This document shows positions 1-44,000 of a stretch of 64,000 nt of DNA, piece after piece (within the stretch, counting starts at the first letter, position 1; each line of letters starts with the position of its first letter). The DNA is from Macrostomum lignano (Eukaryota). Location of the stretch: the NCBI GenBank assembly GCA_002269645.1, contig NIVC01000014.1, forward strand, positions 186,001 to 250,000, read 5' to 3'. The position numbers and the translations under genes were made by a program. The notes beneath the pieces are model-generated. The model made no database searches. It saw nothing but the letters and a program-made list of their open reading frames with translations, and was not told the DNA's origin.

Positions 1-1
1 T

Positions 2-337
2 GTTATCTGTCACTTTTAGTTGTGATTGATGTGGTTGTGATTGTTGTTGTGATTGTTGTGGTTGCGGTTGTGTCTGTGGTTGCGGTTGTATCTGTGGTGC
101 TTCTGGAATTTTACCCAAAACCTTTTGCACTTGGGTTTCCTGTATGTCGTCGATAGTTTCTTTGACCTGATCAATATTTTTCTTAGCTTCTCCATACCCG
201 GGCTTATGAAACTCTGTGGCTGCTTGGACAAACTCATTGTAGGATTGTTGCTCCTTATTTATTAGCCCGGTAACTCGTTTCTCAGCTTGTGCTAGCTTCT
301 CCAATTCAGATATCTGCTGTGTACTTTTTCGCTTCAT
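2..337 (-). CDS. Partial ORF of the viral element, open at the window edge and absent from the ORF track; charged N-terminus then Gln/Pro-rich tract
   Basis: ATG at 337 reads MKRKSTQQISELEKLAQAEKRVTGLINKEQQSYNEFVQAATEFHKPGYGEAKKNIDQVKETIDDIQETQVQKVLGKIPEAPQIQPQPQTQPQPQQSQQQSQPHQSQLKVTDN with no stop for 112 codons. It lies 30 bp from the divergent capsid ATG. Confidence 0.7.
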   Translation of the reverse strand, partial: MKRKSTQQISELEKLAQAEKRVTGLINKEQQSYNEFVQAATEFHKPGYGEAKKNIDQVKETIDDIQETQVQKVLGKIPEAPQIQPQPQTQPQPQQSQQQSQPHQSQLKVTDN

Positions 338-367
338 TTCTTATTTTATTTTATTTTTAGTTAAAAA

Positions 368-1654
368 ATGAACGACCCACTGACACCAGTTTTCTACAAG
401 ATTAACAAGCCTATTTTGAGTGATGATAGCACAATCAAAGCGACTCAGGTAAGAGTTCCCAGTCAGGAAAATCAGAATGAAACTAATCTTGGTCCTGGTC
501 AAACACTGACATTTACATACAATGGATGTTCGTCTCTGGTTAGTGTGCACAGTCTTAAGAGCGGCTTCCATATGACATTTCAATTCAAGACAAAAGGTGG
601 TGCGGATGCGGCTCGTGCTAACGTTGACAAGCATGATGCGGATGTGGCTCTGATCAGTAACTTTTGGGCGTACATGTTCAAGGAGTTTAGTGTATCGAAT
701 GGGAGCACAGAGTTGGAGCGAATCGCCAACTTTGGAATTGTCTATGACGCTCATTGTTTGATCGAGAATCCTGATTTTATTCAATTGGGAAGTGGTGCGG
801 GTTTTATTGCAGACGAAAAAGAAGGAGATATCAATGACAGTGGTTATAAAAATAGGAAGAAGAGATACAACTATGCATTGCAAGGTGCTGATGATGCTGC
901 TAAGAACCCGCTGTATCGGTCTGTTGATGTATTTGTACCATTGAGATTCATGAGTGGATTCTGTAATACATTTAATCGACTGACTAGTAACTTTAGCTAC
1001 ACATTTAGACTGACTAGAGATGATCGCAGTAGAGTGTTGTGGACTGGGGCGGACCACACTGGGATGGCTGTGAAGCTAACCGGAATCGAGCTGTATTTGG
1101 AAGTCATTGAGCCAAAGACTGCACTAAAAGCGGATTATCTCAAGGCAATAGAGAAGGACATTGATGTTGCATACACGGCCTACATGTGTCGAGATGAGCG
1201 AAACGAAACTAGAACAAACATCTGCATTAAAGAGGGATCATGCAGCAATCCAAGGTATATCATTATTAATATGAGAAACCCAAATAGCATTATACGCTAC
1301 ATGCATGGAGACGTGCGGTCCATTCAGCATGAAATCAGTGATAATCTTTACCCTGCACTGCCACAAAATGGAGATTTCAGTCAGAACAAGATTAGCAAAT
1401 TTTACAGCGAGTTGGTCGACTTGGCTGTGAAAGAGAACAATGGAATTGCTATCACTGCTCTTCAATATGGAACTCTATATCCGATGTTTGGCGCTGATGT
1501 GTCTGCCAGACAAATGCCTACTGATAACAGCCCTGTGAATATCGTGACTAACATTGAGAGGACTGCCGCAACACCCGTGGACTTGTACATTATCTATGCA
1601 TTTGAGAGGAAGGTGAAGCTTAACATGATCAACAATTCATCCAGTAAAGTTTAA
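368..1654 (+). CDS. Polinton/adintovirus-type major capsid protein (double jelly-roll, hexon-like), 428 aa
   Basis: Intronless intact ORF. Motif order matches Polinton MCPs as recalled: LISNFWAYMFKE..NG.ELER..NFGI, VPLRFMSGF, PRYIII, YPALPQNGDF, YPMFGADVS. It is adjacent to a minor capsid gene. Confidence 0.8.
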   Translation: MNDPLTPVFYKINKPILSDDSTIKATQVRVPSQENQNETNLGPGQTLTFTYNGCSSLVSVHSLKSGFHMTFQFKTKGGADAARANVDKHDADVALISNFWAYMFKEFSVSNGSTELERIANFGIVYDAHCLIENPDFIQLGSGAGFIADEKEGDINDSGYKNRKKRYNYALQGADDAAKNPLYRSVDVFVPLRFMSGFCNTFNRLTSNFSYTFRLTRDDRSRVLWTGADHTGMAVKLTGIELYLEVIEPKTALKADYLKAIEKDIDVAYTAYMCRDERNETRTNICIKEGSCSNPRYIIINMRNPNSIIRYMHGDVRSIQHEISDNLYPALPQNGDFSQNKISKFYSELVDLAVKENNGIAITALQYGTLYPMFGADVSARQMPTDNSPVNIVTNIERTAATPVDLYIIYAFERKVKLNMINNSSSKV

Positions 1655-1674
1655 ATATTTTTTTAGGACAAAAA

Positions 1675-2538
1675 ATGGAAGCTATAGCCGAAAGACTAAA
1701 CAACATTGTTTCACACTCTAAGGAGAGCATTCCTATTACAATAACCGGGCGAATTAATGACTCAAACGGGATATTTGTTGAAAAATTAGAGCAGGCGATT
1801 CGCCTGGATCCTGGCGCTAATTACCATGTCTATCTTAACGACTTCACTGGTTGGTCAAACGTTCCCAATGTGATGGCAGCAAATAATAAGTTTTATTACA
1901 AATGGAAAGGTGCAGCAGCAGACCCTGTGGTATTCCATGTGAGCACGCAAAGTGTGGATACCTACAATAACTTTCTAGAAAATGTCTTTACTAAGAGAGG
2001 CCATTTTGAGACACCTGATGCGAGTAAGCCAGAGAAGAAACTGTTCCCTGTCAAACTAACCTATGATCTCACTGTAATGAGAGTGGTCATGCAAGTTCAC
2101 AAAGATGCGGAGGTTGAGTTTAAAGATGACACTTGGTATAGGGAACTGGGATTCGAGAAGAAAGTTTATAAGGCAGAATCCGCGGCGCGGACCGCCACTC
2201 AAGCATCGGGGACCGTTAAAATGGCCCGGGAAAACGTAAGCGGTTTGTTCTTAGCACCCAATATTGCAGACATTGTAAAGGGTTTGAATATTCTAATCAG
2301 AAGTAATCTCAGTCTTGATTGGGTATTTAAGGGAAAGCGAACTAATATTTTGTACAACATCTCCAACTCTGTAGCTGGAGGACAGATGGTGGTAGAGAAA
2401 CCAAATCCAGTGAAAAGAGTTGTATTGAGTAATAAGGAGATTCACGAGATTGTGCTACAGTTTGAGACTGAAGATGGGATGGGTGTTGATTTCAACGGTG
2501 AAGAGTTTGTATTGACGTTGATCATTGAGAGAATGTGA
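1675..2538 (+). CDS. Polinton/adintovirus-type minor capsid protein (penton-like), 287 aa
   Basis: Intronless intact ORF 20 bp after the MCP stop. Shows NVPNV...NNKFYY and the C-terminal DIVKGLNILIRSNL...GQMVVEKP...IHEIVLQFETEDGMGVDFNGEEFVLTL pattern typical of Polinton pentons. Confidence 0.8.
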   Translation: MEAIAERLNNIVSHSKESIPITITGRINDSNGIFVEKLEQAIRLDPGANYHVYLNDFTGWSNVPNVMAANNKFYYKWKGAAADPVVFHVSTQSVDTYNNFLENVFTKRGHFETPDASKPEKKLFPVKLTYDLTVMRVVMQVHKDAEVEFKDDTWYRELGFEKKVYKAESAARTATQASGTVKMARENVSGLFLAPNIADIVKGLNILIRSNLSLDWVFKGKRTNILYNISNSVAGGQMVVEKPNPVKRVVLSNKEIHEIVLQFETEDGMGVDFNGEEFVLTLIIERM

Positions 2539-2811
2539 GAAAATGCGTTCCCTTTTAAGTATGCTTGCAGAGAATAGAGTGGTATGAAAAAATGCGCGCA
2601 TGTGTACTCAAAATCTCTTACCCCATTCTGACAGGTTGTGGGCGCGGGCGTCGCGTGTGTGGGGGAGAGGGGAGTGTATGTATGTGGGCGCAGCGCGCGT
2701 GGGGGAGAGAGATTTTCACTTTAACTGAGCCCAGCCGAGGAAGAATTCCGTCTCGAGGGAAGGCCAGAATGCAAACGATTTCGGCCTCGCGCAAGGCCAA
2801 AATGAAAAGGG

Positions 2812-2920
2812 TTTTGGCCTTTTGGCCTTTTGGCCTTTTTGGCCTTTTGGCCTTTTGGCCTTTTTGGCCTTTTGGCCTTTTGGCCTTTTGGCCTTTTGGC
2901 CTTTTGGCCTTTTGGCCTTT
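2812..2920. repeat. (TTTTGGCC)13 octamer array preceded by a 10-bp perfect stem-loop
   Basis: 13 GGCC cores at 2816-2914. Stem AAGGCCAAAA (2793-2802) pairs with TTTTGGCCTT (2812-2821) around a 9-nt loop. Confidence 0.95.
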
Positions 2921-2926
2921 CAGTTT

Positions 2927-3169
2927 TTAACGCAATTGCTTAATGATTTCTGCAAAGTTATAGTAGCTGTCGTAATCTTTTACGTAGGTTACTCCATACT
3001 TATGAAACCAGTGTCTTTGGAGAGCTAGATTAATATTAGGGACATTGATATCAACGTTGGGCCAATATTTTCTCATGTACTCGCTGCATTCAAGTTTGCA
3101 TTGGTACTTGGATTTGTACAATGGATTAGGCTGAGTATAATAAGAACCTGGAGAGACAACTGGAAACAT
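2927..3169 (-). CDS. Small Tyr-rich orphan ORF (80 aa), probably viral
   Basis: Same AAAAA-ATG start context as both capsid genes. Stop codon lies 6 bp from the octamer array. No recognised motif. Confidence 0.5.
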   Translation of the reverse strand: MFPVVSPGSYYTQPNPLYKSKYQCKLECSEYMRKYWPNVDINVPNINLALQRHWFHKYGVTYVKDYDSYYNFAEIIKQLR

Positions 3170-3395
3170 TTTTTAGAGAAAATTTAATTTTTTTTCAAAG
3201 GGTAAGGACCCTGGGTTAGGGGATTTAAAGTTTTAGGGATCTGGTTTCGCCGCTTCGGATTGAATGTGGGCCCCATGGGGAGAAGAATGCAGATTTTTTT
3301 TTTCTGATTGTTTCGAAGATGCTATGGGTGGATGTCAGTGGATTATGTCAGTGTCAGTGAACATAACAGGTGTTAGTGGAAATCTGTTATGCACT

Positions 3396-3692
3396 GATTC
3401 TGTCAGGGATAATATGGATGGATTTAATACGATTATGTTCGAAGTTTTCGGAGCAAGTGCGACCCCTCCACTTTTTCATGATTCTGTCGGGGATAATATG
3501 GATGGATTTAATGGGATTATGGAGGACGTTTTGTGAGCGAGTGCGACCCCCCTTTTTTTCTGATTCTGTCAGGGATAATATAGATGGATTTAATGGGATT
3601 ATGGAGGACGTTTTCGGAGCGAGTGCGACCCCCCTTTTTTTCTGATTCTGTCAGGGATAATATGGATGGATTTAGGTGGATTATGGAGGAGG
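3396..3692. repeat. About 3.5 tandem copies of an 82-84 bp unit
   Basis: GATTCTGTC(A/G)GGGATAATAT recurs at 3396, 3480, 3562 and 3644. Confidence 0.9.
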
Positions 3693-4479
3693 TGAAAAAT
3701 TTTGTCCCAGAAGCCCCCTCATGCCTTCTACTTACCGTTGAAAAAATGAAATTCCTACAATGTACTTTATTGTATTATAGACATAAAAATAACACAAGTA
3801 AATACGTAAATATGGATAGATATGCATAGATAAGTGGTGCTTCCTACCGCGGTGGTAGGAAAAAAGAATATAATCCAGAAACAGAAGGGTAAAAAAGGAA
3901 CAGAAGAACACAGAAGAAGGAAACGCAGGGCAGTGGCAGACTCGCTGCCTATCAAGTGGGCTAGCAGAATTAGTGCAATCGACTGACTGCAAGCAAGAAT
4001 CCAAGAAGTTGAACAGTGGTGAGTTAGTATCCAGGGCCGCCGCTTGTGGGTGCAGTAGAAGGTTGGAGAGAATATGATGGAGAAAAATGTTTCTTTGACC
4101 TTGCGGAAGAGCCAGAAGGAGAGAGAGATAAGTGTTTTTTGTTTCCACCAGAAGAAAAATAGGAAATCCTTATCTTTCTAAGAATTCTAGAAAGTATAAC
4201 ACTTCTTCTATTAGCTTTTAATGGTTAATTACCAATTTTTAACTTTTATTTAACGCCGCAAAGTATGGTTTATTTCATAGCTTCGAGTTATTTATTTTAC
4301 AACACAATAGTCACAACGAAGCGTAACTTAAAGCGGAATTTTATTTACAAAAGTATTTTTTTACTTTTTTTGAGAATAATATTAGTAAAATTTGGTAGAT
4401 TCTACTTACACCAATTAATCAGTAGGATAGTTAGCGTTTTTTTGTTATTATTAAAAGCAGAATTCAGTTTCCAGTTGAT

Positions 4480-7164
4480 TCAACGAAAATAGCCAGGATT
4501 AAAGGTGACCCAGTGCGCCTTATCCTGCGCCTTGGCCTCCTTCGAACTGGTTAACAGGGACTTCAGTGCCGCCGAAGCCTTCGGGTTGTTTTGAATGCTG
4601 CTGCCACTTGGACGAGCAATCTTTGAACCGGTTGATGAAGCAGAAGCAGATTCTGCTGGTTGCTGCTTTCGCTTTGCAGCAGCGGGAGCAGCAGCGGCAG
4701 ACTTGGACGATTTATTACTTTTTGATTCCTGCCTGAGTTTGCGTTTCCTAGCAACCATAGCCTCGCTAGCGGCGGCAACTTCAGCGTCCGTGGCAGGATT
4801 GAGAACAATCAAATCTGACATGGCGTCAGGCTGCTGACAGGACGGGCAGGCCAGCGACTGCCTATTTGGTGCGGACTTCAGCAGCTGGTCAACGGCTTTC
4901 TCGGCCAGCGCGCAGCCGCAGGACCAGGGGAACACGAAACGGAACCGGCCGTTCATCTCCACGCCGGACAGGGGGCAGGCGAACAGGCTGGCGGCCGAAG
5001 CAGCGGCAGCACCAGCGCCTGCGGCGGATGATGAAGCAGCTTTCTCCTGGTTGTTGGGAGGCGGGGAGGCGAATTTTAGAATGTTACTCCTTTTTTAAAC
5101 TTGCGAATCAAGTATGTCAGATTCCCCTTAAAATCCCATAATTCTCAGATTCCCCATAAAATCCCATAGTTCTCAGATTCCCCATAAATCCCATAGTTCT
5201 CAGATTCCCCATAAAATCCCATAATTCTCAGATTCCCCATAAAATCCCATAGTTCTCAGATTCCCCATAAAATCCCATAATTCTCAGATTCCCCATAAAA
5301 TCCCATAGTTCTCAGATTCCCCTTAAAATCCCATAATTCTCAGATTCCCCATAAAACCCCATAGTTCTCAGATTCCCCATAAAACCCCATAATTCTCAGA
5401 TTCCCCATAAAACCCCATAATTCTCAGATTCCCCAAAAAACCCCATAATTCTCAGATTCCCCAAAAAAACCCCATAATTCTCAGATTCCCCATAAAACCC
5501 CATAATTCTCAGATTCCCCATAAAACCCCATAATTCTCAGATTCCCCATAAAATCCCTTAATTCTCAGATTCCCCATAAAACCCCATAATTCTCAGATTC
5601 CCCTTAAAATCCCATAGTTCTCAGATTCCCCATAAAATCCCATAGTTCTCAGATTCCCCATAAAATCCCATAGTTCTCAGATTCCCCATAAAATCCTATA
5701 ATTCTCAGATTCCCCTTAAAATCCCATAGTTCTCAGATTCCCCATAAAATCCCATAGTTCTCAGATTCCCCATAAAATCCGATAGTTCTCAGATTCCCCA
5801 TAAAATCCCATAGTTCTCAGATTCCCCATAAAATCCCATAATTCTCAGATTCCCCTTAAAAGCCCATAATGGTCTGTTTCCCTTAAAATCCCATAATTCT
5901 TGGATTCCCCTTAGAAGCCCATAATTCTCTGATTCCCTTGAAATCCTATAATTCCCAGTTTCCCCTTAAAAGCCCATAATTCTAGACATTCTTGAGGGTG
6001 AAATTTAAACCGCAAAACGCTCTGAATCTTAAAATCTCACAGCCTTGGTGATCTTCATAATAATAATAATTGATTACACTTGCCCCGATGGGAAGACTTG
6101 CAACCTATATTACGCCACACACACCCTCAATTACCCCAGCTAATGCTGGCACCCATTTTACAGCTGGGTGAACTGAAGCAATGCAGAGTTAAGTGTCATG
6201 CTCAAGGACACACATTGTTCCAGTGGGATAGGGAATCGAACCCCCGACCTTCAAGTCGCGAGTCCGAAGCTCTAAACACTAGGCTACAACTGTCTCCAGT
6301 TGGATCGGGAATCGAACCCCCGACCTTCAAGTCGTGAGTCCGAAGCTCTAAACACTAGGCTACAACTGTCTCCAGTGGGATCGGGAATCGAACCCCCGAC
6401 CTTAAGTCGTGAGTCCTAAGCTCTAAACACTAGGCTACAACTGTCTCCAGTGGGATCGGGAATCGAACCCCCGACCTTAAGTCGCGAGTCCGACGCTCTA
6501 AACACTAGGCTACAACTGTCTCCAGTGGGATCGGGAATCGAACCCCCGACCTTAAGTTGCGAGTCCGACGCTCTAAACACTAGGCTACAACTGTCTCCAG
6601 TGGGATCGGGAATCGAACCCCCGACCTTAAGTCGCGAGTCCGACGCTCTAAACACTAGGCTACAACTGTCTCCAGTGGGATCGGGAATCGAACCCCCGAC
6701 CTTAAGTCGCGAGTCCGACGCTCTAAACACTAGGCTACAACTGTCTCCAGTGGGATCGGGAATCGAACCCCCGACCTTCAAGTCGCGAGTCCGACGCTCT
6801 AAACACTAGGCTACAACCCCCCTCATTAATCTTCATATCCTTTCATTAAAAAACCTCGCAGAATTACCTGTCCCTCCGGATTATCAGCCAGTTTAAGCTC
6901 GCGCAAGTCCCGCAACGAGCGGATATGCTCGAACGCGCCGCTAGTGCCGTATTTCTCTCTGTCGAGCAGGAACTCCAGAGCGGCAGTCTTGTTGTACATC
7001 CGACCAAGATGACAGGCTACTATTGGCCGGTTGAGCAGCTCCTGAGACAGCTGGCAGTGTCTCCATCTGGCGGCCAATTCAGCCTCCTTGGCCACCTGTT
7101 CGGGTTTCTGGCGACTGCGCACCAGTTCGATTCGTTTCGGTATGCTGCCTCCGTCTCCGCCCAT
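4480..7164 (-). CDS. RTF2: Replication termination factor 2; exons 7164-6868 and 5046-4480 (287 aa)
   Basis: MGGDGGSIPKRIELV, WRHCQLSQELLNRPIVAC.LGRMYNK, FACPLSGVEMNGRFRFVF..SCGC and C-terminal HWVTF match the Rtf2 family. Phase-0 GT-AG intron 6867-5047. Confidence 0.95.
5130..5980. repeat. 28-bp minisatellite in the RTF2 intron
   Basis: Unit TTCCCCATAAAA(T/C)CCCATA(A/G)TTCTCAGA, about 28-30 copies, decaying on the right. Confidence 0.95.
6058..6300 (-). mobile_element. tRNA-derived SINE, copy 1
   Basis: Minus strand shows an A-box-like TAGCCTAGTGTTTAG, B box GGTTCGATTCC, body GACACTTAACTCTGCAT...TTAGCTGGGGTAATTGA shared with 51305-51490, and an (ATT)n tail. Confidence 0.8.
6231..6815 (-). 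repeat. Eight tandem 75-76 bp copies of the SINE tRNA-like head
   Basis: GGGAATCGAACCCCCGACC starts at 6231, 6307, 6383, 6458, 6533, 6608, 6683 and 6758. Confidence 0.95.
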
Positions 7165-15859: not shown

Positions 15860-17320
15860 ATAGCTCACAGACGTGGGACCGCGATGTCATCATCTCCCAG
15901 GCAAGACAGCCATGACAGCGACCAAGGCTAGTGCTTCCAGGGACGAGCTGTAGCGCATCCACGCTCAGCGGACTGAAGTCTTTAGCAAAGAGGCTGTGAG
16001 CAAAATCAAATTCGCCACTAACGACAGCCGCCAGCCGCCATAGTGCTGCCTTGAGGGCCCCCGTCGGCACTGATTCTGATTCCACGAAGCCTGAAAGCTG
16101 GCCCACGAGGTTCTCAACGCGCCCGCTCCAACTGCGCCTCTTCTGCCCATCCCAGACTTTGCTCCAGCCCAGCCAGGCGCCTTCAACACCGGTTTCATCC
16201 AGCAGGCGAGGTTGGCTGAGCACTGAGTACTGCAAGCTGATGCCGCCGCTGGGATGGACGCCATCGCTCCAAGGGATCCTGAAGCTGCCTGAGCTCACCC
16301 CAATCCCCACCAGACTGCTGAACAAGCACTGCAGCTTTGGAGGCAACGAGACCGCCTCAGCTCCTCAGCAATGGCGCACCTCCAAGATTGTCTCCATCAG
16401 CCTGGAAAGCCAGCGGGGCATCGTGCTATAATGCACAACGCCGAAGCCGCTAAACGTGATTCTGGCAACCGCCTCCTTCCCAGCCCTAACCCGCTGCTGC
16501 TGAGCTTCCAAAGCGGGCTTCCGCCTTGACAGGTCCACCATCGAGCAGGTTACCACCATCCGCTCTGTCATAGAGGCCTGCAAGACCCGCCAGCGCTCCG
16601 TGTCAATCGTCTTTGTCGAGTTCCGCAAGGCACTTTCCAGCTGCTACATAGCGCGCTCTCACAAGGCTCTGCGACGTGGGCGCCGCGACCTGGGCGCCCC
16701 GTGTTGGGCTGCTGGTGAATGCTCGCAAGACGGAGGCGCTGCACGTGGGCACAAATACCGCCCAACTCGCACGCTGCCAATGGAGACGGCATCGCGGTGT
16801 GCCAGGCACCCTGGTGATGAACCGCTATGCCATTGTCTCCGACAGGAGGACTCAGGCCTGTGGCGCGCCAAGCACCTCTTCAGGAACGTCTTTAATTCAG
16901 CTGTCAAAGACAATCTGATGGTGCGCCTGTTCCACGCGTCCATAGTGCCGATCCTCCTGTACGGCATGGGGATGCGAGAGCGAGCCCTGGACGCGCTCTA
17001 CCGATCGTTGCTGCGCTACACGGTGGGCGTGCATTACCCGGAGCGCCTGCCGCTCTGATGACCCGCCTTGGAGCTCCGCCCCAGATGCTGCTGGGCCACT
17101 GCCTACGGACCCTGGACCGTGGTGCGCCCGTCCCTCTGACCCTGGCCGACCGAGCAACTGCGCCGAGGCCAGACCTGCACTGCCACTCTGACGGACTGCC
17201 TCATTGCTGACTTGCAGGCGCTTGCACTGACCCCTCAGGCTGCTGCTGCCTGCCCCTCCTGCCTGTTCTGCAAACACGTGCGCGTAAGGGGTCTCCTCTC
17301 TGGTTTCTTAATAATAATAA
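15860..17320 (+). mobile_element. Internally deleted, frameshifted RTE-like non-LTR retrotransposon fragment
   Basis: RT motifs AGFR.DRSTIEQVTTIRSVIE...IVFVEFRKAL (about 16510-16640), GLLVNARKTE and VRLFHASIVPILLYG; 3' (TAA)n tail at 17309-17320. The QG and YADD motifs are missing. Confidence 0.8.
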
Positions 17321-17561
17321 CAGCTACTCGTTATTTTGCATAAACAATAATCATCTGAATGGCTATTTGTTTCATTGTGTATCAGTTGCAGCAAAGTTTA
17401 CTTTTTATGAGTGTCTCAACATTTTGATCATGATCAACTAATATGAAAATGAATTTTTATACTGAAATTCAATCGATACGCAATGATGTAGACTGGCTAT
17501 AGTACAAACATTCAACCTTTCAGCTGTCAAAAGTACTTTGCCAGCATACTGATACTCAGAC

Positions 17562-20272
17562 ATGGCCGAAGGCAGAAGCGACAGAGACTTTCGAAATTTC
17601 ATGGCCGAGAAGAAGGCAGAACTGGAAAAATTCTATAGTAAACTTGAAACAATGGTTGCGTCAGAACAGGCCAAGAAAGTAATCTCTGACAAAGACAAAA
17701 TGATTGATGTGATACGCGCCCTCCAAGTTCTAATGAATGATCACTATGGGGATATGGAGAGCCTGCAGCTGAACGAACCTCAGCTCGCAAAGCACCGCGA
17801 GCAGGTCAGCCAGCTGATCGCCAAGCGCCCGAAGCTGCTGGAAGGTCTCAGCCGCTTGTGCGTCGAGATCTACAAAGTGCAGGCGGATGCTTGCTTTTGC
17901 AAACCTCAGCTTGAAGCGGTTAACAAAGTTCACTCGTATCTATTATACTTTGTGACAGGAAATTTCCACAACTTATCCGACAGCAGCCTTGAATTCTGTC
18001 TTTCACTGTCTCGAATTGAATTTCTGTTCAATGATTTCGTAAAGCCGATGCTTTCCAATTGGTACGAAAAGCATGACTCAATTAAGGACTGTCGTCATGT
18101 TGTGACAGCTTCCATTGGATTCACGTACAATATGCTTTATCGGAACAATCCGGAAATCTACAAGGTCTTATCAGGCTTGATGGTAGCTGCCCCGGTAATA
18201 CCCTACCTACAAAGCCCCATCCTGCACGTGCAAACTCAGGCGCTGGTGCTAATTGCATTCGCACTGGATGAGACCAAGGCGAGCATGTTCGGAAACGCCA
18301 GAGAAGCGATGGAGTTTCTGGTCAACTGCCTCAGCGAGGCCTTGGATTCTGTTAAAAGAAGAGCCGAAGGATACCACATCTCAGAGCTGACCATCTGTCT
18401 GAACCGTCTGGCACTGAACGATGCAAACAAGCGGCTTTTTGTGCAGTTGAGGCTGCTTCCGGTCCTGCGCAGGATGTGCACCGGCGACCGGGACGACGAT
18501 GTCGTGTCGGCGTTGGACATTCTGTGCACCCTGAGCCACCTGGCCGAGAACCGGCCGCTGATTGAGCAGCAGTTTCTGGACATCCTGGCTAAACTGTTCA
18601 CCAGCTCGCAGCCGAACAGCAAAACTGGCGGACTGCTGCGCAACTATTGCTCGCTGCAGGTCAGTGACGACTGCAGACCGACCGCTGATGCATGGCAGTT
18701 TTGTCTAGTTTTCTCGTTACGCTCGTATAGGATTCTAGCCAATAGGTTGTTAGTTGTAGGCGTAAAGCTTTCATTAAACTTGCTTGACTAACTACTACTA
18801 GCTAAGGTAATCGCTGTGGGTATTCTCACTTTATCAGTGAGTTAATGAAGCGTTGAACGAACAGTTTATTCATTTGCATCTGCATCGAATATATATCTGC
18901 CCTCACTTGACCTTCCATTCGCGACAACGATTAAGGGCCTGGACAGAAACCTCGGCGGTCGAGTTTCAGCAGCCGGCGTCAAAGCTGCTCAGCGAACTCC
19001 GGAGCTGGCGTGCTTCATCGAGGCGTTCAAGAGGCTGCATGCAGATGTGAGAACGTTTACACTGCGCTATTAGATTTATTTCAGTAGCTGAAATAACTTG
19101 GTCCCATGGTTCACAAATTAAAGCGCAGCTTTTGATTAGTTATTAAATGACGGCTTACGCCTTTAGTCCGTAGCTCTTTACCAATACCAAAACACACAAA
19201 AATGTCTAAACTCACTCGCAAACTCAACTGTGAAGGCCGCACCTGAGGCTGTGTCGCCCAATCCACCAAGAAGGCCGCAGCGGCAGCCGTCGCCACCGCC
19301 ACAGCAGTCACCACCGCAGTCGCCGGTCGACGATACACCTGAAATGGACGCCAGCTTTACCACCTGGGACTTTGTTCTCGAGGACAACAAGAAGAAGGTC
19401 ATTGGAGCCGGCGGATTCGGCAAGGTGTTCCAAGCCATCACCGACCGGCACCAGTTTGTAGCCGTCAAGGTCATCAAGCCGCTGATGCAGATGACTCCGG
19501 AGGCGCAGCGGAAAATCTTCGAGATGGAGAGGCGAGCTCTGGAGCTGCTCAGCACCGTCCGACACAGAAACGTAGTTCGTTTCCTCAGAGCCGAAGAGCA
19601 GTCCGGCAAGTACTTCATCTTCTGCGAGCTACTCTCTGGCTGTACTATTGAGCAATTGATGACGCGTCGGGGAACCCCCATCGATGAGGACGGAATTCGC
19701 AAGTTCATCGGACAGGTGCGTTTCTGTGCTGATTAGGCCGATTCCGATGCATTGCTCATGCTTGATGCAGCTCACTCAAGCTTGTCTCACTCTGGCGTTT
19801 GCAGACGTGCTCAGCGCTGTCCCACTTGCACGGTCTGGCCCGCCCGATTCTTCACCGCGACATTAAGTCGTCTAACCTGATGCTGACCTACTCTGGCACG
19901 GTGAAGCTGATCGACTTCGGATTCGCTCGGGAGATCGCCACGTCGCAGATGGTGACTCACCAGCAGTGCGGCACTCCGCACTTCATGGCGCCAGAGATCC
20001 TCACAGCTGAGGACGCTGTGGTGTACACCGCCAAGACCGACGTATGGGCTGTCGGCTGCACTGCGTTCGAGATGGCCACAGGCAGTCCGCCGAATTCCGA
20101 CGTCAGGCAGATGTTCCGCTTGGCGATACTCATCTCCAGCAAGCCCATGCCGGAGCTGCCGGCATCTGTGGCCAGCTCGCTGCGTGACTTCTATCGGGTG
20201 TGCGTTCAGCAGCAGCCCGGAGATAGACCGAGTGCGAGCGAGCTGCTGAGGCACCGGTTTCTGGCTGGTTAG
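17562..20272 (+). CDS. ARM-like helical domain fused to an STE/MAP3K-like Ser/Thr kinase; exons 17562-18659, 18936-19046, 19236-19715, 19805-20272 (about 718 aa)
   Basis: Kinase motifs GAGGFGKV, VAVK, HRDIKSSN, DFG, GTPHFMAPE and DVWAVGC are intact. All three introns are GT-AG and phase 0, but two acceptors (TAAG, GAAG) are weak, so the fusion is less certain than the kinase. Confidence 0.75.
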
Positions 20273-31549: not shown

Positions 31550-32558
31550 AAGAAGACAATGGTTCACTTAAGGGTTTGAGCTATCATATTGCTCCCATAG
31601 TTGCAAATTCCTCTTGGGATTCATGTTGTAACTAGCTCGTACTTTATTATAAAATAATAGGTTATGCCCTAGACAAAAAACATTGGGCTAGGGGCATACT
31701 CTGTGTCTTCTCTGTTAATATACAACATTCCCCCTTTTGTCAATAAAAAGTTGCATTGTCAGTTATCCAGAATTATTCACTGTAATGCAACCAATCTGGT
31801 TTTCTCAATTTGCTTCAATCCCTCAGTATCCTTGTGCCCACGCCTTCTGCTCCAGGGTCAGCGTCATCCTGGTCTGTGTCCGCTGCCTGAGATTCTCTTC
31901 GGCTTGGCACGTCTTTGACTGGTTGAGTTGATTCACTCTCTTGTCGCTCTTTCTCAGTGGTAGTTTTGTCTCTCTGAACTCTCCTAGGATCCTTCAGAAT
32001 AGGCAATAGGTGATGAGCCTCCGGCTTGTTCTGTCCAGGTAATTCTGCACTGACAATTTGGTCGATGTGTTGCTTCCAGACTTGTCTATTGACCAACAGT
32101 CTATAGGACAGCGGTCCTGTGGGGGCAATCACCTTGGCAGAAATCCACCTGTTTTCTCTCTCTTTTCTGAAGTCCAATGTCACAACTGAGTCTCCTTCTT
32201 GACATTCTCGAATAATTGATCCTCTCTCTATTTGTCGTTCAGTGACATCTGTCTGCTTGTTTAACACTCTTGAGTATGCATCCAGCTTGAGAAAATCCAA
32301 CTGTGTCCTGCAACTATAGCATAACATCATCTCTGCTAGTGTTCTACTAGTTGTTGAATGAGGTATGCTGCGATAGCAAAGCAGAAAGTTCTGCATGCTC
32401 AAGATTGGATCACCGTGAGTCTTAATTCCTGTTTTGATAGCAGACTTTGCTGTTTGCACCATTCTTTCACTAAGTCCATTGGTACGCGGATGTCCAACAG
32501 CTGTCAAAATCTGTTGGATGTTATTCTGCTCTAGGAAAGTATGGAACTCAGCTGAGCA

Positions 32559-32854
32559 CATACATGCGCAACGTCCAAAATTCGGTCGGCCGTGCGACTT
32601 AGTTTTAACAAAAATGCGACGTAGTTTTTGGCCAAAAATGCGACTTACATGTAAAAAAAAGGAAAGCAAAATTAACGCAACTTTGGGTAAACGGCGGGAG
32701 TAACTATGACTGTCTTATCAGGCAAAAATGCCTCGTCAGCTACTTAGTACTACTGCGTGGGTATTTTTTGGGTGGGCATTTTTGCGACTTCCTTGGTTGG
32801 CTGCCAAATCAGTCGGCCGGATCGGCCGACTCGGCCGACTGTTGCGCATGTATG
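32559..32854. mobile_element. 296-bp hAT-type MITE inserted in the Gypsy integrase core
   Basis: Perfect 14-bp TIR CATACATGCGCAAC; 8-bp TSD GCTGAGCA at 32551 and 32855; splits SDNGSQFC/SAEF. Confidence 0.95.
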
Positions 32855-35800
32855 GCTGAGCAGAACTGGCTACCATTGTCACTCAACACTTGCTGTGGGA
32901 TGCCAAATTGTGGGAACATTTCTCGTAGACATTCTATCGTCCTGTTGGTAGTTGTGTGCTTCATGGGAAAGATCTCAACCTATTTAATTGTTGCATCGAC
33001 TATAACAAGCCAGTAGTCCATGGAATGGTCCCATGTAGTCCAGTTGAATTCAAGTCCAAGGCCTTTCTGGCTAGACAAGAGGCTTAACTGGTGCTTGTGC
33101 AGGCAAATTCCTTTGCAGCTGACAGCCTTCACAACTACAGACTAGGGCTTCTATAGCCTTGTCGATTCCTGGATTGAATTCCTTCAATCATGAAGCAGTT
33201 CTAACATAACCTGTTGTACGCTTCTTGGAATAATTACTCTTACTCCCCAAAATAGCACACCTTGCTCAATGCAAAACTTGTTCCGCTTCCTGAAGTACTG
33301 TTCCAGCTCTTGCTCACAGGTGTCTGGCCAACCATTTTGACAGTATCAAACAACTCTCTGAAACTATGAATCTTTCTGTTTCTCGGTTCATATTGTTTCT
33401 GAATTGACTGGTAGCATTTCTAGCCTCACCTCCAAGACACGATCAACCTTGCTGATATTACTAGGCACTGGGAGACATGAAAGTGTGTCAGCATTAGAAT
33501 GATCCTCTGTTCTTCTGAATTTGATGGTATACTGATAGGCAGAAAGCAACATGGCCCAGCGCTGAAGTCTGCTTGCTGCTATGCTCGGAATGTCCTTCTT
33601 ATCTCCAAAAATGGTCAGTAAGGGTTTATGGTCAATCACTAGTATAAAATGATGTCCAAAAAAATATTGGTGAAATCTTTTAACTCTAAAGACGATGGCC
33701 AGCGCTTCTTTCTCTAGTTGAGAGTAGTTTATCTCAGGTTTTGTTAGAGTTCTCAAAGCAAACGCTACAGGCCTTTCCTTGCCATTTGGCATCAAATGTG
33801 AGATGACACACCCAATTCCATATTTGGAGGCATCCATTTGCAACACAAGCTGCTTCTTAGGATCAAAATGAGCCAGAACACACTCAGACATTAGAGTTGC
33901 CTTCACTTTCTCAAATGCTGCCAAACATGCCTCACTCCAATGAAACTCTGCGTCTTTGTGCAATAGTCTGTTGAGAGGTACCAGTATTGATGATAGGTTT
34001 GGAATAAACTTTCCATAATAGCTGATCATTCCTATCAAGGAACGAACCTCTGACACGTTAGTTGGTGTTGGAGCTTCATGAATTGCCTGAACTTTCTCTT
34101 TCAAGAGATAGATTCCTGATTCATCGATAATGTAGCCCAAGAATTCAAATCTGTTTAGGCGGAATTCACACTTTTTCCGATTTAAATGCACACCGTGTGC
34201 TAAAAGATGTTCTAATACAGCTTCCAACCTTTTGTCATGGTCTTTCAAATAACTGCCGGATACAATAATGTCGTCTATATAGACAACTACTTCTAAGCCT
34301 TGTAAAATTTTCTCCATCGCTTCTTGAAATTGCACAGGGGCTAATGCCAGACCCATTGACAGTCGCTCGTATTGGAACAAACCCAGATGTATGTTAATTG
34401 TAGCAAACTTTTTGCACAAATCCTCCAGTTCCAGTTGTAAAAACACTTGCAAAATATCCAATTTCAAGAAGACTCTTCCACCATTCAGAGTTGCGAAAAT
34501 TTCTTCTGGTTTCGGCAGAGGGTACTTATCAACTTCCAATTGGGGATTAATGGTTCTCTTGAAATCAGCGCAAATCCTTATGGATTTTGCATCATGCTTC
34601 AAAACTGGGACAATCGGAGATGCAAAGTCTGATGTGCTCACTTTTTTATTATGCCTTGAGCTTTCAAATTTGCCAGCTCTTCTTCAATGAGGCTTTTGAT
34701 TGCAAATGGCACTGGTCAACTCTAGCAAAACTTTGGAATGAAGTTTTCTTTTAATAGTATTCTGGCCTTTAACCCTTTGATAGTGCCAAGGCTTTTAGCA
34801 AACACTTGATCATACTTCTTCATTAACTGCTTGATAGGTGGAACCAACGTTGTTGTTTTCACATGGGTAAACTTGCTCCAGTCAATTTTCAACAAAGAAA
34901 GCTAGTCCCGACCTAGAAGATTCACTCTGTCTCCCTTCACAACAAGCACAGTTAGTTGATACTGTCTTTCCTGATAATCAGTTATGGTAATAGTAGCTTT
35001 GCCCAGAACTGGTATAAGATGATCTGTGTAACTTGACAGTCTAACATTAGATTTAGACCACCTTAAGCCAATTTTCTTGCCAGTATTTTCATTAATAAAG
35101 GTTTTGTCTGCGCCAGTATCCAGTTGGAAATTTATAAAATGCCCATTTATATTTAACTCGCACATATACGGTGCTGATCCACTAAAAGCCAGCCATTCCT
35201 ATAGCAAACACAGTCCTGATCTTGGAATGCTTGTCTCGACCACCGCAGTCCAAACCCTCACTTTCTGACTCACTGTCGAAATTCCGTGCATAATGCACCT
35301 TACTGGACTTCCCACGTTTTGAAGAGTTGAATCGCTTCGACTTGCCATTTCTAGACTCTTTTGCTTTGTCCTTTGTATGGCATGCATCTCTAAGATGTCC
35401 TACTTGGCCACATTTGCTGCACATTTTATTCCTATATGGATAGCTCCTTGCCCAATGATCCTTTGTGTTACAGCGGAAACATCCATCTTGGGCGCGGCTC
35501 CTTTTCCCATGTTGCGCTGCAGTTGATTGCTTGTTAGTTTCCTTCGAGAAATTGACACTATGACCAACTCCTGTGGCAGAGGTGATAGTCACGACTCCTA
35601 GCTCTGCTGCTTCCATCGCAGTTGCTAGCGTTAATGCACCCGACAGGGTCAGTGTCTTTTCTTGTAGCAATCGCTGCTAGATGAGCCCATTCCTGAGGCC
35701 AATGACGAACCTGTCAGTCCTGTCTCTCAGTGCCTCCTCCAAGAACTTGTCAAAACCACATGTGGCTGCCAATCTCTGCAGACTTGCAACAAAGTCACTC

Positions 35801-36418
35801 ACTGTTTCTCCTTCATGTTGGACTCTGCTGTGGAAGTTGTACTGCTCGACAACAATCTTTGGCTTTGGGTTGAAGTGTTCCCTCAGCGACTTCACTTGTT
35901 CATTGTATGCCACATCCTTTGGCTTCTTAGGCAATAGTAGGTTGCGTAGCAATTGATAACAGTCATTGCCTATCACTGTGATCAAGCTTGCTTGCTTTTG
36001 TGCCTCCTTGGTCATTTTATTCACGACGAGAAATTGTTCTAGCTGCTCTTTGTAGGCTTCCCATTGATCTGGTTTAGCCATGTCAAACTCGCCAATTTTT
36101 GTACTTATTGCCATTGTTATGTCTTCTGCTCCGACATGGAGCTGCTACATTTAAGTAAGAAGACAACGGTTTGCTTAGGCGTTTGAGCTATCGTATTGCT
36201 CCCGTAGTTGCGAACTCCTCTTGGGATTCATGTTGTAACTAGCTCGTACTTTATTATAAAATAATAGGTTGTGCCCTAGACAACAAAACATTGGGCTGGG
36301 GGCATACTCTGTGTCTTCTCTGTTAATATACAACATATAGTGACCAATAGAGCCAGAGAAAGAAAAAAAGTATTATAGTATCCATTTACTAAAAATGAAA
36401 ATCTGGTTTGCTTGTATG

Positions 36419-36986: not shown

Positions 36987-38289
36987 CTTGTATGCAATTC
37001 ATATCTAAAAAAAATCAAATAAAATTTTATTTGACTAGTAACCTAGACTTAGTAGGTTAAAGCTTTAACTTTATTTATCATTAGACTTAGATCTAGCTAT
37101 TTACTTTAAGCTAATTCGTTTTCCTATTATCTTTATCAATATATTCATTGTCAAGGATATATAGAAAGAGTAGTCATTATAATTTATTTCAAATAAAGTT
37201 CTTATTAATATTGCTAATAAAGAATTAATTTTTTAAATTATAAATGTTTTTATTAAAAATATATAATAGAATTAGAAAGATCATTATAAGCTATTTAAAA
37301 TAAAGCCTTTGTTACCAACAAGGTTTTTACCAAAGCCATAGTGACTTGATTCTATTAAGCAAAATCATTATTGCCAAGATGGTCTATTATCAAAATTTAC
37401 TATTGCTAATAATACTATATATTAGATAGTTAGCTAGTTTTTTCCTGAGACAAGATGCCAAATTACACATTGTAACCAATTTCAAAGTGCAATTTTAGGG
37501 CTCAGAATGCAATTTCTCTTTTTTCTAAGTGCAAATAAGGCCTAAAAATGAAAATAGTTTGTGAGACCATATCTAAATTGTATCTACTTTTTCAATTTCA
37601 AGGTGCAATTTCAAAATTCAGGGTTTAAAGGCACATTCTATGCTCAAAAACCTAGATAGTATGGCTAAAGGCTTAGGAGTAGACCTAGATTCAAATTTTA
37701 TCATAATATATTATATTATATATATTAAAATAATAATGTTAGACATAGGGCCTAAGATAAGCATAGCCTATAAAATAATCCAACATTGGCTAATGTCTTA
37801 CTGATGTTAGCACTGACCTTTGACCAATATCATATAACATATATATAAATATGATATTAAATGTTTTTTCCTTGGTCAAATGTCAGGCTGACATCAAGGT
37901 CAACAAATTTTCTATTTTAATTTTTTGCCTGTCAACCTGATTTATTATTTGTGTTTTTATAGCAACCTGGTAGCAATATGCACATTAAAAGCCTAGTTAA
38001 TCAGCTAATTTGTACCCCCCTTATTAAAGATGACCTAATAGATTAAATCTTGACTCTGTATAAGTTTTAGAGCTTTATATTTTATTGTTCCGGCTAGTAT
38101 TTACTACTTAAAACTTCAAAATTAATAATATCTTATATAGTTAATGAATGACAGTTTGACATCTACTTGGTTCAAATTGCAGCTGGGCAGCCAGAAGAAA
38201 AGCAATTATTTGGTGCACAGATTTCTACATACAAAAGAGGTCCAGTTGGCCCAAAAAATCATACCATTTGTACTGCTTAGAATTGCTGC

Positions 38290-40650
38290 ATGGTACACAG
38301 ATGCAAAGTGAACTCCCACAGTGGCAGTAGTAGCAGCGGCAGCACTGGTGCCGGCAGCAGCGGCTCCTTAGGCGGTGGAATTCTCAAACACTCCAATTAT
38401 CAGCATCACCACCACCAGAATATGACGCAGTCCAATAACAATGTGACTTTGTCTCCAGGTCATCATTCACCATCGACTTCGTCCACTAGGTCAACAGGCA
38501 GTCCAGCTGCTGGCTTATCTGGAGCTTCATCATCGTCCGCAGCATCGGTATCAGCGGTGGCGTCTTCCTCAACTTCGTCAACTAGTTTAGCGGGTCCTTC
38601 AGTGACATTTGCTGCTGGCGTTGCTGGCGGAAGCAGCAGTGCAGGTAGCAGTAGTCGACGCCAGCGCATCCTTCATCACCAGCCGCATCATCAGCATCAG
38701 CTGGAACGACTGCAGCATCCGAACACTTACCTGTGGACTAAGTTGGAGCGCCTATTAGAACGGATGCAGAACGAAGATTCTGGTATTAGTGTTCGCACCG
38801 TGAAATCGTTTATGTCCTCCAGGCCGTCGTGTTTTACTGGGGCGGAGATGTGCAGCTGGCTGCAGGCCAACGCTGACGCTGATGATGCTCAGGAAGCGTC
38901 CCATTTGGCTACTATGCTGGCTACTCACGGTTACATCATACCTGTTGAAGGGCATCAGTTAGCTGTTCGCAACGATTCCTCCTATTATCGATTTCAAACT
39001 CCATGTCTATGGCCGAGTAAATCTCCGGAAAGATTAGATAATACCGACTATGCTGTTTACCTGTGCAAGCGGACTCTATTAAATAAGCAGCGATTAGAAC
39101 TGGCCGATTATGAAGCTGAAAACTTGGCTAGATTGCAACGATTATTGTCGCATAAATGGGAATTGATTTATTTGCAAGCTGAGGCTGAGGCTAAAGTTGA
39201 CAGGTAATTAGTGGGATTGTGCGTTATTTGGTTAGATGGTAATATTCACTAGTTTAGCAGCCCATTTAGCTATTTCAAGCAACAGATGCTTCCTAAAAAC
39301 CATCAGGTTCCAACTATCCATGCTTTTTAGCTAGTGAAGTCTACTAATAGTAGTATATGTTATAATTAGAATTTTAAGTTACCCGACAGCCGTGTGCCGC
39401 TAGGTAACCAGCTGCAACTGACTGTTAAATTCCAGTAGTAAGACTAGTCACGATTATCATCTTTTGTTGCAATTGTGCAATTGTGTGCATACAAACTTGA
39501 CATGGAATAATGATAGTCCTTTTAAGGTCTATCCGGGGGAGATTAGTTAAAGGTCTAAGGTGCCCCTTAGTGGAATGAGGGCTTGCCGTGTTTCTTGTTA
39601 AAAGTCGCGCCTGAAGCGTGAAGTTACTAATCTTGTCTCTCTCCCTATTATCCGAGTAAAACTCAGGTAATTACGATTATAATTAGAAAAATGAGGCAGA
39701 TGCTCTCTACACGCAACTCAGTGATTCTACAGTGACTCTAGCACGCCTAAGATTCGACTCAACGGCTCCAGAGTTATTATAGAAGCGCCCCATAGTCACT
39801 TGAGTCGTCCAAGAGTCACTAGAGAGTCGCTCAAGAGTCACTAGAGTCGCCCGAGAGTCGCTTGAGTCGCCTAAGAGTCACTAGAGTCGCCCTAGAGTCG
39901 CTTGAGTCGCCCCAGAGTCACTAGAGTCGCCCAAGAGTCGCTTAAGTCGCCCCAGAGTCACTAGAGTCGCCCAAGAGTCACTAGAGTCGCCCCAGAATCA
40001 CTTGAGTCGCCCCAGAATCACTTGAGTCGCCCCAGAATCACTTGAGTCGCCCCAGAATCACTTGAGTCGCCCCAGAATCACTTGAGTCGCCCCAGAATCA
40101 CTTCAGAGTCGCAGAAAATCAAAAAGCCTCAAAATGGACTCTTAAGCGGATCTTGGACCACTTTTTGGCGGCTTTTATCGTCGTTTTAGAGTCATATACA
40201 GTCACTTTCTTCCTATTTTACCTGTGTTATCAGCAACGACTCTGGGGCGACACAAGTAACTCTGGGACGCTTCTTGGCGTGGATACCGTTTTCTTCGATA
40301 TAGTAAATCTAATGGCTAACTTTCTAGGAAATGCGACCGTTTGGAGCGTCGAGTCCTGGAAAGTCAAGAGCGCGGTTTCTGGATCCTGTACAGACCGCCC
40401 CCGGGCACCGTGAGCAGCACCGAGCTGAACATGCGCAAGCTTTGCCGGGCCAAACGGCCCAAGAAACCCAGCCAGAGACCCGCAAATTTTCCCATACCGA
40501 GCGGCCGGGTCAGCCCGGTTGAGGCTTGCGAATCCGATATGCACGCTGATAAGCTGAGGGCCGCGCTGGCCCGCTGCAGGGTTCGGGTGAGTGCTGGCTT
40601 TTGTTGTGGAATGTTATCCAGCTGTGTCTTTGTCTGGCTGTCTGTCTGTG

Positions 40651-40725
<75 letters not shown>

Positions 40726-40772
40726 GTGTCTGTCTGTCTGTCTGTGTCTGTCTGTCTGTCTGTCTGTCTTAG

Positions 40773-40813
<41 letters not shown>

Positions 40814-40840
40814 TAGTGTCTGTCTGTCTGCCTGTCTTAG

Positions 40841-40875
<35 letters not shown>

Positions 40876-40948
40876 GTGTCTGTCTGTCTGTCTGTCTGTG
40901 TGTCTGTCTGTCTGTGTGTCTGTCTGTCTGTGTGTCTGTCTGTCTTAG

Positions 40949-41009
<61 letters not shown>

Positions 41010-44000
41010 GAGTGTCTATCTGTCTGTCTGTCTGTTTCTCTGTTCATCTACATATCTATCATGTGCCATCTATTACGTCTTGATAATAGATAAGATGCAC
41101 CTTATTACCTAAAATATTTATTAATGTCGTTCGAAGGCCAATTCAATCAACGAGACACTTAGCATTTAAAAAGGAATATCTCCAGCTGGAATTTAGTGCA
41201 TAATTAATTATAATATTGAGAGGACTTCTTCTCATCAAAGGAATTCACAAGCGAGGTTACTGCTTCTCTGTCAGGTCCTTGGTTTCTCCATCTCTCCATT
41301 TCTGCTTAGAATTCTCTACATTTATCTTCAAAGAACAGATCCCGCCACTGCCAGACTTCTGCTGTTGCGATGGATTCGCTTGTGCTTATTTTCCCCCTTA
41401 GATATTTCCCCTTGGATTAGCCAGAAAGGCACAGTATCGATAGTCGGTATCGGGTGTACGCAAGCGGGCATGAATCATTAGCTTGGTCATTGACTGGTTT
41501 ATTTTATGGATTCTGTAGATTTCTTCTGTTTCTTTAATAAGATCACTTCGCTGTGACAAGCTTCTATTTGCATGTTGATAGATTCCTGATTCATCTGCAT
41601 GGATTGTTTCGACAAGCAAACCAAATTTGAGATGCATGTCTGTCCTCACCGGTAGGGTGGTTCTACTCACCGGTAGGGTGCTTGTCCTCACCGGTAGGTT
41701 CCTGTCCTCACCGGTAGGGTGCCTGTCCTCACCGGTAGGTTCCTGTCCTCACCGGTAGGGTGCCTGTCCTCACCAGTAGGTTCCTGTCCTCACCGGTAGG
41801 GTGCCTGTCCTCACCAGTAGGTTCCTGTCCTCACCGGTAGGGTGCCTGTCCTCACCGGTAGGTTCCTGTCCTCACCGGTAGGTTGCCTGTCCTCACCAGT
41901 AGGTTCCTGTCCTCACCGGTAGGGTGCCTGTCCTCACCGGTAGGGTGCCTGTCCTCACCGGTAGGGTGCCTGTCCTCACCAGTAGGTTCCTGTCCTCACC
42001 GGTAGGTTGCCTGTCCTCACCAGTAGGTTCCTGTCCTCACCGGTAGGTTGCCTGTCCTCACCAGTAGGGTGCCTGTCCTCGCCAGTAGGTTGCCTGTCCT
42101 CACCGGTAGGGTGCCTGTCCTCACCGATTGGGTGCCTGTCCTCACCGGTAGGGTGCCTGTCCTCACCGATTGGGTGCCTGTCCTCACCGGTAGGGTGCCT
42201 GTCCTCACCGATTGGGTGCCTGTCCTCACCGGTAGGGTGCCTGTCCGCCTGTCCCTATCGCCAGATTGCAGCGTCCCAGCCGGGCCGGTCAAACTGCTGT
42301 TCTATAATCTAGCAAATCCGTCAAATAAGAAGCATGTTTTTATATTTCATGTCCGATCTGACCGCTATTACATCACCCTTTCATTCGCAGATATCGAAAT
42401 CGGCCGAGTGCTTCACCGCCCACTGCAGCCAGTGGCTGGAATTCGACGCATTCTTAGGCGGCGGCCTACCGGAGTCCTGTCCAAATCCATGGGCCACGGA
42501 TTCGCTAGAGTTTTGGGAGTCGGAACGGCGAACTCACGACATACCGGCTAGGCGGGTGAAGCGATGGGCCTTCGACATGCAAGAGTTGCTAAGGGACCCG
42601 GCTGGTAGAATTGAGTTCGAGCGCTGGCTGGAGAAGGAGTTTAGCAGGGAGAACCTCAGCTTCTGGGAGGCTTGTCAGGTTTGTTTAGTGTTGATGCTTT
42701 TATGTTTATAAATAGCAGATAGTCTAGAACCCTAAACCAATCATCTAGATCCCTAAACCAATCATCTAGATCCCTAAACCAATAGTCTAGAACCCTAAAC
42801 CAATAATCTAGATCCCTAAACCAATAATCTAATCCCTAAACCAATAGTCTAAGTCCGTAAACCAATAATCTAGATCCCTAAACCAATAGTCTAGAACCCT
42901 AAACCAATAATCTAGATCCCTAAACCAATAGTCTAGATCCCTAAACCAATAATATAGATCCCTAAACCAATAGTCTAGATCCCTAAACCAATAGTCTAGA
43001 ACCCTAAACCAATAGTCTAGATCCCTAAACCAATAGTCTAGAACCCTAAACCAATAATCTAGATCCCTAAACCAATAGTCTAAATCCCTAAACCAATAAT
43101 ATAGATCCCTAAACCAATAGTCTAGATCCCTAAACCAATAGTCTAGATCCCTAAACCAATAGTCTAGAACCCTAAACCAATAGTCTAGATCCCTAAACCA
43201 ATAGTATAGATCCCTAAACCAATAATCTAGATCCCTAAACCAATAATATAGATCCCTAAACCAATAGTCTAGAACCCTAAACCAATAATCTAGATCCCTA
43301 AACCAATAGTCTAGAACCCTAAACCAATAATCTAATCCCTAAACCAATAATCTAAGTCCGTAAACCAATAATATAGATCCCTAAACCAATAGTCTAGAAC
43401 CCTAAACCAATAATCTAGATCCCTAAACCAATAATCTAATCCCTAAACCAATAGTCTAAGTCCGTAAACCAATAATCTAGATCCCTAAACCAATAGTCTA
43501 GAACCCTAAACCAATAATCTAGATCCCTAAACCAATAGTCTAGAACCCTAAACCAATAGTCTAGAATCCTAAACCAATAGTCTAGAACCCTAAACCAATA
43601 ATCTAGATCCCTAAACCAATAATCTAGATCCCTAAACCAATAGTCTAGAACCCTAAACCAATAATCTAGATCGCTAAACCAATAATCTAGATCCCTAAAC
43701 CAATAGTCTAGATCCCTAAACCAATAGTATAGATCCCTAAACCAATAATCTAGATCCCTAAACCAATAATCTAGATCCCTAAACCAATAATCTAGATCCC
43801 TAAACCAATAGTCTAGAACCCTAAACCAATAATCTAGATCGCTAAACCAATAATCTAGATCCCTAAACCAATAGTCTAGATCCCTAAACCAAAAGTCTAG
43901 ATCCCTAAACCAATAGTATAGATCCCTAAACCAATAATCTAGATCCCTAAACCAATAATCTAGATCCCTAAACCAATAGTCTAGATCCCTAAACCAATAA

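Follow-up and report, generated by a model that had tools for sequence, protein, structure and literature searches.

The first 3732 bp of the window (the whole stretch of 64,000 nucleotides of Macrostomum lignano DNA that was analyzed) appear to be the right-hand end of a multicopy integrated element, likely a Polinton/Maverick, with unbroken genes for a predicted major capsid protein (MCP) and a predicted penton. The insertion, close behind the 3′ end of the host gene Rtf2, is likely recent. We give this reading a probability of about 0.8. Polintons are defined by self-synthesis, an integrase, and a capsid module, with lengths of 13–25 kb (PMC10748475). Since only 3.7 kb of an element of this type lies in the window, we claim neither an intact element nor virions; this copy may be complete or a deleted passenger.

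The two capsid genes occur on the plus strand as open frames, ORF1 at 368–1654 (428 aa) and ORF2 at 1675–2538 (287 aa), with a gap of 20 nt. The preliminary description, made from the sequence alone, had listed them as uninterrupted and intronless, and rightly so: relatives of similar length align with both over the full length, and no intron is therefore required. In a search of 1.84 billion representatives, 100 proteins were obtained (E up to 0.001). The relatives of ORF1 (nine, 43%–78% identity) and those of ORF2 (13, 38%–64% identity) come from short contigs in ENA, JGI, and Logan. The nearest capsid relatives (P0001–P0006, P0009–P0015, and P0016–P0025), likewise on short ENA/JGI/Logan contigs, show 70%–78% identity in the MCP and 55%–64% in the penton. 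Profile comparison found no sequence relation between ORF1 and ORF2. No related loci with flanks were found in viral contigs, metagenome contigs, or prokaryote genomes.

A third frame was overlooked in the preliminary description. ORF0 (1–337, minus strand, 112 aa) is open-ended and forms the 5′ part of an element gene that crosses the window start. It is head-to-head with ORF1, with 30 bp between the starts, and its depth is raised to the level of the element. The product has a charged N-terminal stretch followed by a Q/P-rich repeat; there is no Pfam match below E = 0.04 and no longer homolog among 163 candidates (weak evidence).

The 30 bp between the starts of ORF0 and ORF1 (338–367) are an A/T spacer, with a motif in common with ORF2. 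At the start of each capsid gene stands T5-AG, then 2–4 bases, then A5-ATG, a pattern that occurs only at 354 and 1660 on either strand of the 64-kb window; since the pattern was drawn up from these very sites, it has no valid P-value. The motif might act as a trans-splice acceptor or as a promoter specific to the element; we favor a promoter, or a plain A/T-rich spacer. A literature search on Polintons with trans-splicing and spliced leaders, outside most subscription papers, returned one dinoflagellate work. The CpG observed/expected ratios are 0.69 (ORF1) and 0.74 (ORF2), lower than in all seven host coding stretches measured (0.86–1.24) and higher than in three Gypsy stretches (0.42–0.60). 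With both ORFs below each of these seven, CpG is uninformative on age, and its retention, taken earlier as a sign of youth, loses that meaning.

Jelly-roll folds, for which structure prediction had been suggested, are recovered in the models of both products. The ORF1 model (pLDDT 90.2, pTM 0.89, from a 59-row alignment) was compared with 48,161 solved chains. The best match is the PBCV-1 capsid (Z 24.7, rmsd 3.5, 345 residues aligned), with the faustovirus MCP (Z 23.8), Sputnik (Z 21.2), and the mavirus MCP (Z 19.9) among the other matches. Viral capsid or scaffold chains fill all of the top 16 rows, and cellular chains begin at Z 8.4. On this modeled structure, ORF1 is predicted with high confidence to encode a double jelly-roll MCP, equivalent to Polinton PY or hexon. 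The Pfam family PF21738 matches ORF1 itself weakly and under the cutoff (E = 1.2e-4, 21.8 of 27 bits); among the 59 aligned members, 56 match it (best E = 3.9e-51). No BFVD entry among the best 50 is more than 12% identical to ORF1 (6%–12%), which points to a divergent capsid lineage. A quick tree was built from the window protein and 45 full-length matches (46 rows, with fragments excluded and no named references). In it, ORF1 falls in a group of eight with 100% support, whose sister is formed by three relatives with 43%–45% identity. In the ESM Atlas, scores of 0.97–0.98 to viral and PF21738 clusters, with recognition below the 2300 mark, are leads only.

For ORF2, the model is of middling quality (pLDDT 71, pTM 0.57, from a 12-row alignment). 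It matches the mavirus penton with Z 10.8 (rmsd 11.7, 233 residues aligned), a chain of the PBCV-1 capsid with Z 9.8 (rmsd 3.2, 127 residues aligned), and Sputnik with Z 9.6; full-length superpositions give rmsd values of 11–17. The top nine rows are viral and the first cellular row has Z 6.2. In BFVD, a putative minor capsid protein ranks first (E = 3e-11), with further matches to minor capsid or LO5 entries of mavirus, MELD, and adomavirus. With fair confidence, the predicted structure identifies ORF2 as the penton, a single jelly-roll minor capsid protein with an inserted domain. Sequence searches gave nothing in Pfam below E = 0.05 for the 12 members of alignment A2, nothing in NCBIfam and PHROGs below E = 0.03 (six proteins), and, among the sequences of solved structures, no match for alignment A3 and one chance dynein match (E = 0.015) for alignment A2. 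ORF2 contains an extra loop of 22 residues in frame (approximately residues 166–187; window 2170–2235) that is missing from most relatives. At this site, shorter inserts are present in two relatives, and the model confidence is low. Four of the six listed nonsynonymous variants of ORF2 fall in the extra loop, which resembles a variable surface loop of a penton.

Sequencing runs locate the end of the element. At least half of the words of 1–5100 occur in 20 of the 24 runs listed. These 20 runs come from one organism and eight studies, with the source possibly among the studies, and none of them is recorded as RNA. Four runs (X3, X6, X11, and X13) were compared with the window, all as contigs. 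Contigs of X3 and X6 are DNA, since they cross the Rtf2 splice site and continue in the intron; in X11 and X13, contigs pass at 5049 straight to the upstream exon, as expected of RNA. In all four runs, the summed depth falls between the bins ending at 3740 and 3910 (from 59,222 to 56 in X3 and from 18,959 to 25 in X6). In X13, at least seven contigs, among the 24 of 636 loose ends listed, exit the window behind 3732 into differing sequence (agreement 0.46), which fixes the end of the element there. The boundary is thus at 3732/3733 and not near 4.2 kb, where a junction had been placed; a candidate end at 4201–4209 was rejected, the depth there being that of the flank.

The last bases before the boundary are those of a Maverick-type terminus. 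The end is CTACT at 3732, with five of the last six bases matching (ACT)2; this is the right end only. In vertebrate Mavericks, the end motifs are (AGT)2//(ACT)2 or (AG)3//(CT)3 (PMC8097293). The noncoding end (2933–3732) is a candidate terminal inverted repeat, with a subterminal array of 3.6 copies of an 82-bp unit at 3394–3690. A raised depth over 2891–3740, with loose ends before 3138 in X6, X11, and X13, fits a repeat of ∼600–800 bp, of which the right arm would lie in the window, and 3138 may be its inner edge; Polintons/Mavericks have terminal inverted repeats of 100–1500 bp. The host bases 3733–3738, next to the terminus, are by position only a candidate 6-bp target-site duplication, the usual length in Polintons/Mavericks being 5–8 bp. 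Between the penton stop and the noncoding end, the 390-bp segment 2543–2932 is present in part of the family: joints from 2542/2543 to 2933 are found in all four runs, with a local drop in depth. The segment contains an array of TTTTGGCC × 13 (2812–2920) and folds better than shuffled sequences (z −3.0), likely because of this GGCC array. The array adjoins a short inverted copy of its unit.

The element shares several features with Polintons/Mavericks (Orthopolintovirales; PMC8097293, PMC10748475): intronless genes for a double jelly-roll MCP and a penton, a terminus of the AG…CT type, many integrated copies both intact and decayed, and purifying selection on the capsid genes. There are also differences. 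The MCP is divergent and under the PF21738 cutoff. In vertebrate Mavericks (PMC8097293), PW, protease, and integrase are listed in the module as well; here the MCP and penton genes adjoin each other immediately inward of the end, and the terminus departs from (ACT)2 at one of six bases. Capsid, penton, terminus, and multiple integration agree with membership, the replication genes being outside the window. Within the Polinton-like viruses, the sequence of ORF1 leaves its class unfixed, with a Pfam score under the cutoff and no BFVD match among the best 50 above 12% identity.

With adintoviruses (PMC8502044, PMC11071296), the element has in common an animal host, hexon-like and penton-like genes, and ends running into host DNA; on the other hand, there was no close match to a named hexon, the structure match of ORF1 to an Adintovirus sp. 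entry in BFVD being just 10% identical. Alpha- and Beta-adintoviruses are defined by a hexon that BLASTp recognizes reciprocally with the Alpha or Beta references, a PolB with an OTU-like domain at the N terminus, and an integrase with a chromodomain. In the text of the adintovirus supplement (PMC8502044), where long cells are cut, there was no match for two short motifs or three flatworm terms. Both folds are also those of the mavirus and Sputnik capsid proteins (in that order, Z 19.9 and 21.2 for the MCP, and 10.8 and 9.6 for ORF2), with identities of 9%–12%. Virophages depend on giant viruses of protists; the present element differs in showing no sign here of such dependence.

The capsid pair could instead belong to another integrating virus of the same broad group (a Polinton-like virus, a MELD virus, or a virophage-like element) whose replicase or integrase differs from that of canonical Polintons. 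The BFVD matches of ORF1 are indeed mixed (virophage MCP, MELD virus, adomavirus LO7, and Adintovirus sp., all 6%–12% identical), the closest capsid relatives are known from contigs of only 0.9–3.7 kb, and capsid modules are described as swapping among these groups of viruses (PMC8502044, PMC11071296). We nevertheless consider such an origin unlikely, given the animal host, the Maverick-type terminus, and the presence of PF21738 in 56 of 59 aligned members.

The element is present in many copies. In X6, at least five contigs over ORF0–ORF2 have depths of 869–1299 against 24.4 for the flank (∼36- to 53-fold), and at least six contigs over the same region have 0–4 differences from the window. 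This excess hints roughly at tens of copies; contig depth does not equal copy number, and part of it could come from free DNA. One X6 contig (record 31) fits 3733–5100 and continues beyond 3733 with 135 letters unlike the element, as in an empty site (one contig in one run, with the orientation checked on records 1 and 7 of X11). The differing exits at the terminus in X13, the empty site in X6, and the step in depth together place the element at several host loci. Internal deletion joints also occur, at least four among the 15 of 29 joints listed (693–1817, 924–993, 1264–1643, and 2112–2458, at depths of 3–47), and a deletion is seen in P0030 as well. Such internally deleted copies indicate that part of the family is decaying. 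The family is thus probably young, multicopy, and insertion-polymorphic.

Two statements of the preliminary description gain from these data. True integration in the host, as opposed to contamination, agrees with the 20 runs of one organism and with the depth step and differing flanks at 3732. A recent insertion agrees with the many copies, the empty allele in one run, and variants that are mostly synonymous. There is a very small probability that the family is real and that the assembly misplaced this copy beside Rtf2. In support of such an artefact, no contig among the 32 of 5497 pieces listed bridges the filled junction 3732/3733, X6 has the empty site, and the window letters at 284, 1812, and 1815 are replaced by another letter, at all depth, in all four runs. 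However, the join is at the exact base where other copies exit (seven X13 contigs) and where the empty allele of X6 diverges, and a polymorphic insertion accounts for the same data, since contigs drop rare alleles.

The capsid genes appear to be under purifying selection. Among the 40 of 178 variant rows listed, 26 variants are in the capsid ORFs, with 16 synonymous, 10 nonsynonymous, and no stop; these are the best-supported rows, not a random sample, and neighboring changes were scored singly. The expected synonymous share is 21%–29% under four transition weights, and the excess has P-values of 1e-5 to 6e-4. Among the 12 of 25 indels listed, none is in ORF1 or ORF2. In fish Mavericks, the same pattern is read as spread through particles (PMC8097293). 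Selection on the capsid genes suggests that the present family also spread, at least partly, through particles in the recent past. The X11 and X13 contigs, of RNA type, cover both capsid ORFs; DNA carry-over from a multicopy family could explain this cover, and expression is not claimed. Domestication of the two capsid genes as immobile host genes of Polinton origin would suit the open frames, the purifying selection, and the cover in two RNA-type runs, but with a depth tens of times that of the flank, several flanks, an intact terminus, and deletion derivatives, it is hardly credible and is largely refuted by the empty allele.

By analogy with Polintons, a protein-primed polymerase would copy the linear DNA, starting at the inverted termini, and a retrovirus-like integrase would insert it with a short duplication. 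Trimers of the MCP and pentamers of the penton would build an icosahedral shell, which a packaging ATPase would fill with element DNA. It is improbable, though conceivable, that the family is a presently active endogenous polintovirus with a capsid of divergent lineage, still making particles and new insertions in a much-sequenced invertebrate, and that its capsid genes, each after a T5-AG…A5-ATG motif, are cut from a shared transcript by the spliced-leader trans-splicing of the host.

Polinton virions had not been observed according to a 2023 account (PMC10748475), and for the DNA of an insect adintovirus the report in PMC8502044 is of copurification with particles only. In most hosts, Polinton virions are known by inference and not by observation, and a young and polymorphic family is of value for a particle search. 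With tens of near-identical copies, a polymorphic insertion, selection on the capsid genes, and an organism sequenced in eight studies over ten years, this family is a fair place to seek particles. The capsid pair alone is ordinary, such modules being common in animal genomes, and the idea of a rare, little-characterized lineage was overstated. In vertebrates, 134 intact Mavericks are described (PMC8097293); Polinton-related regions are reported to form the majority of 781,111 viral regions in 7103 assemblies, and insertions of Orthopolintovirales are already reported in Rhabditophora (bioRxiv 2025.04.19.649669), in a work whose supplements may list the present family. Literature searches found no paper for Macrostomum lignano with transposable elements and Maverick (most subscription papers being outside the search), and only unrelated work for Macrostomum with Polinton. 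Elements of this type are already well described.

On the host side, the last exon and 3′ UTR of Rtf2 occupy 3737–5049 on the minus strand (Pfam Rtf2, E = 3.9e-20). The stop at 4480 is 1.9 kb from ORF2, in accord with the distance of about 2 kb first noted. An RNA contig (X13, contig 15) covers 3737–5049 and continues into the upstream Rtf2 exon, and AATAAA is present at 3771–3766 on the minus strand. From the end of the RNA contig at 3737 and this hexamer, the element lies tail to tail with Rtf2, a few bases past the likely end of the gene. Two further long loose ends of X11 contigs, at 4993 and 5028 in the Rtf2 exon, suggest a second, diverged Rtf2-like copy. In the Rtf2 intron, a 75-bp unit is repeated 7.9 times (6219–6817) and has a tRNA-derived look on the minus strand. 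The Rfam tRNA model scores 30.9 bits at 6751–6820 (cutoff 29) and 23.5 bits at 6297–6368; ARAGORN calls no tRNA in the repeat.

Elsewhere in the window, a frame at 16504–17058, with no Pfam match at E = 0.001, resembles a decayed non-LTR reverse transcriptase. At 17553–20272, a 412-aa frame without Pfam match is followed by kinase exons. The decayed Gypsy of the preliminary description is found as an LTR retrotransposon at ∼31.8–36.1 kb, split over several frames. This Ty3/Gypsy in pieces (31815–36144, minus strand) includes PNMA-like and zinc-knuckle frames, an RT–RNase H frame at 33388–34683, and an integrase-like frame at 31815–32714 with no Pfam call. Together with the spliced Rtf2, a DEP–DHEX–RGS gene (38281–45729) and an ALK/LTK glycine-rich exon (60722–61069), both presumably of animal genes, indicate an animal host. 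Most host introns in the window are filled with minisatellites.
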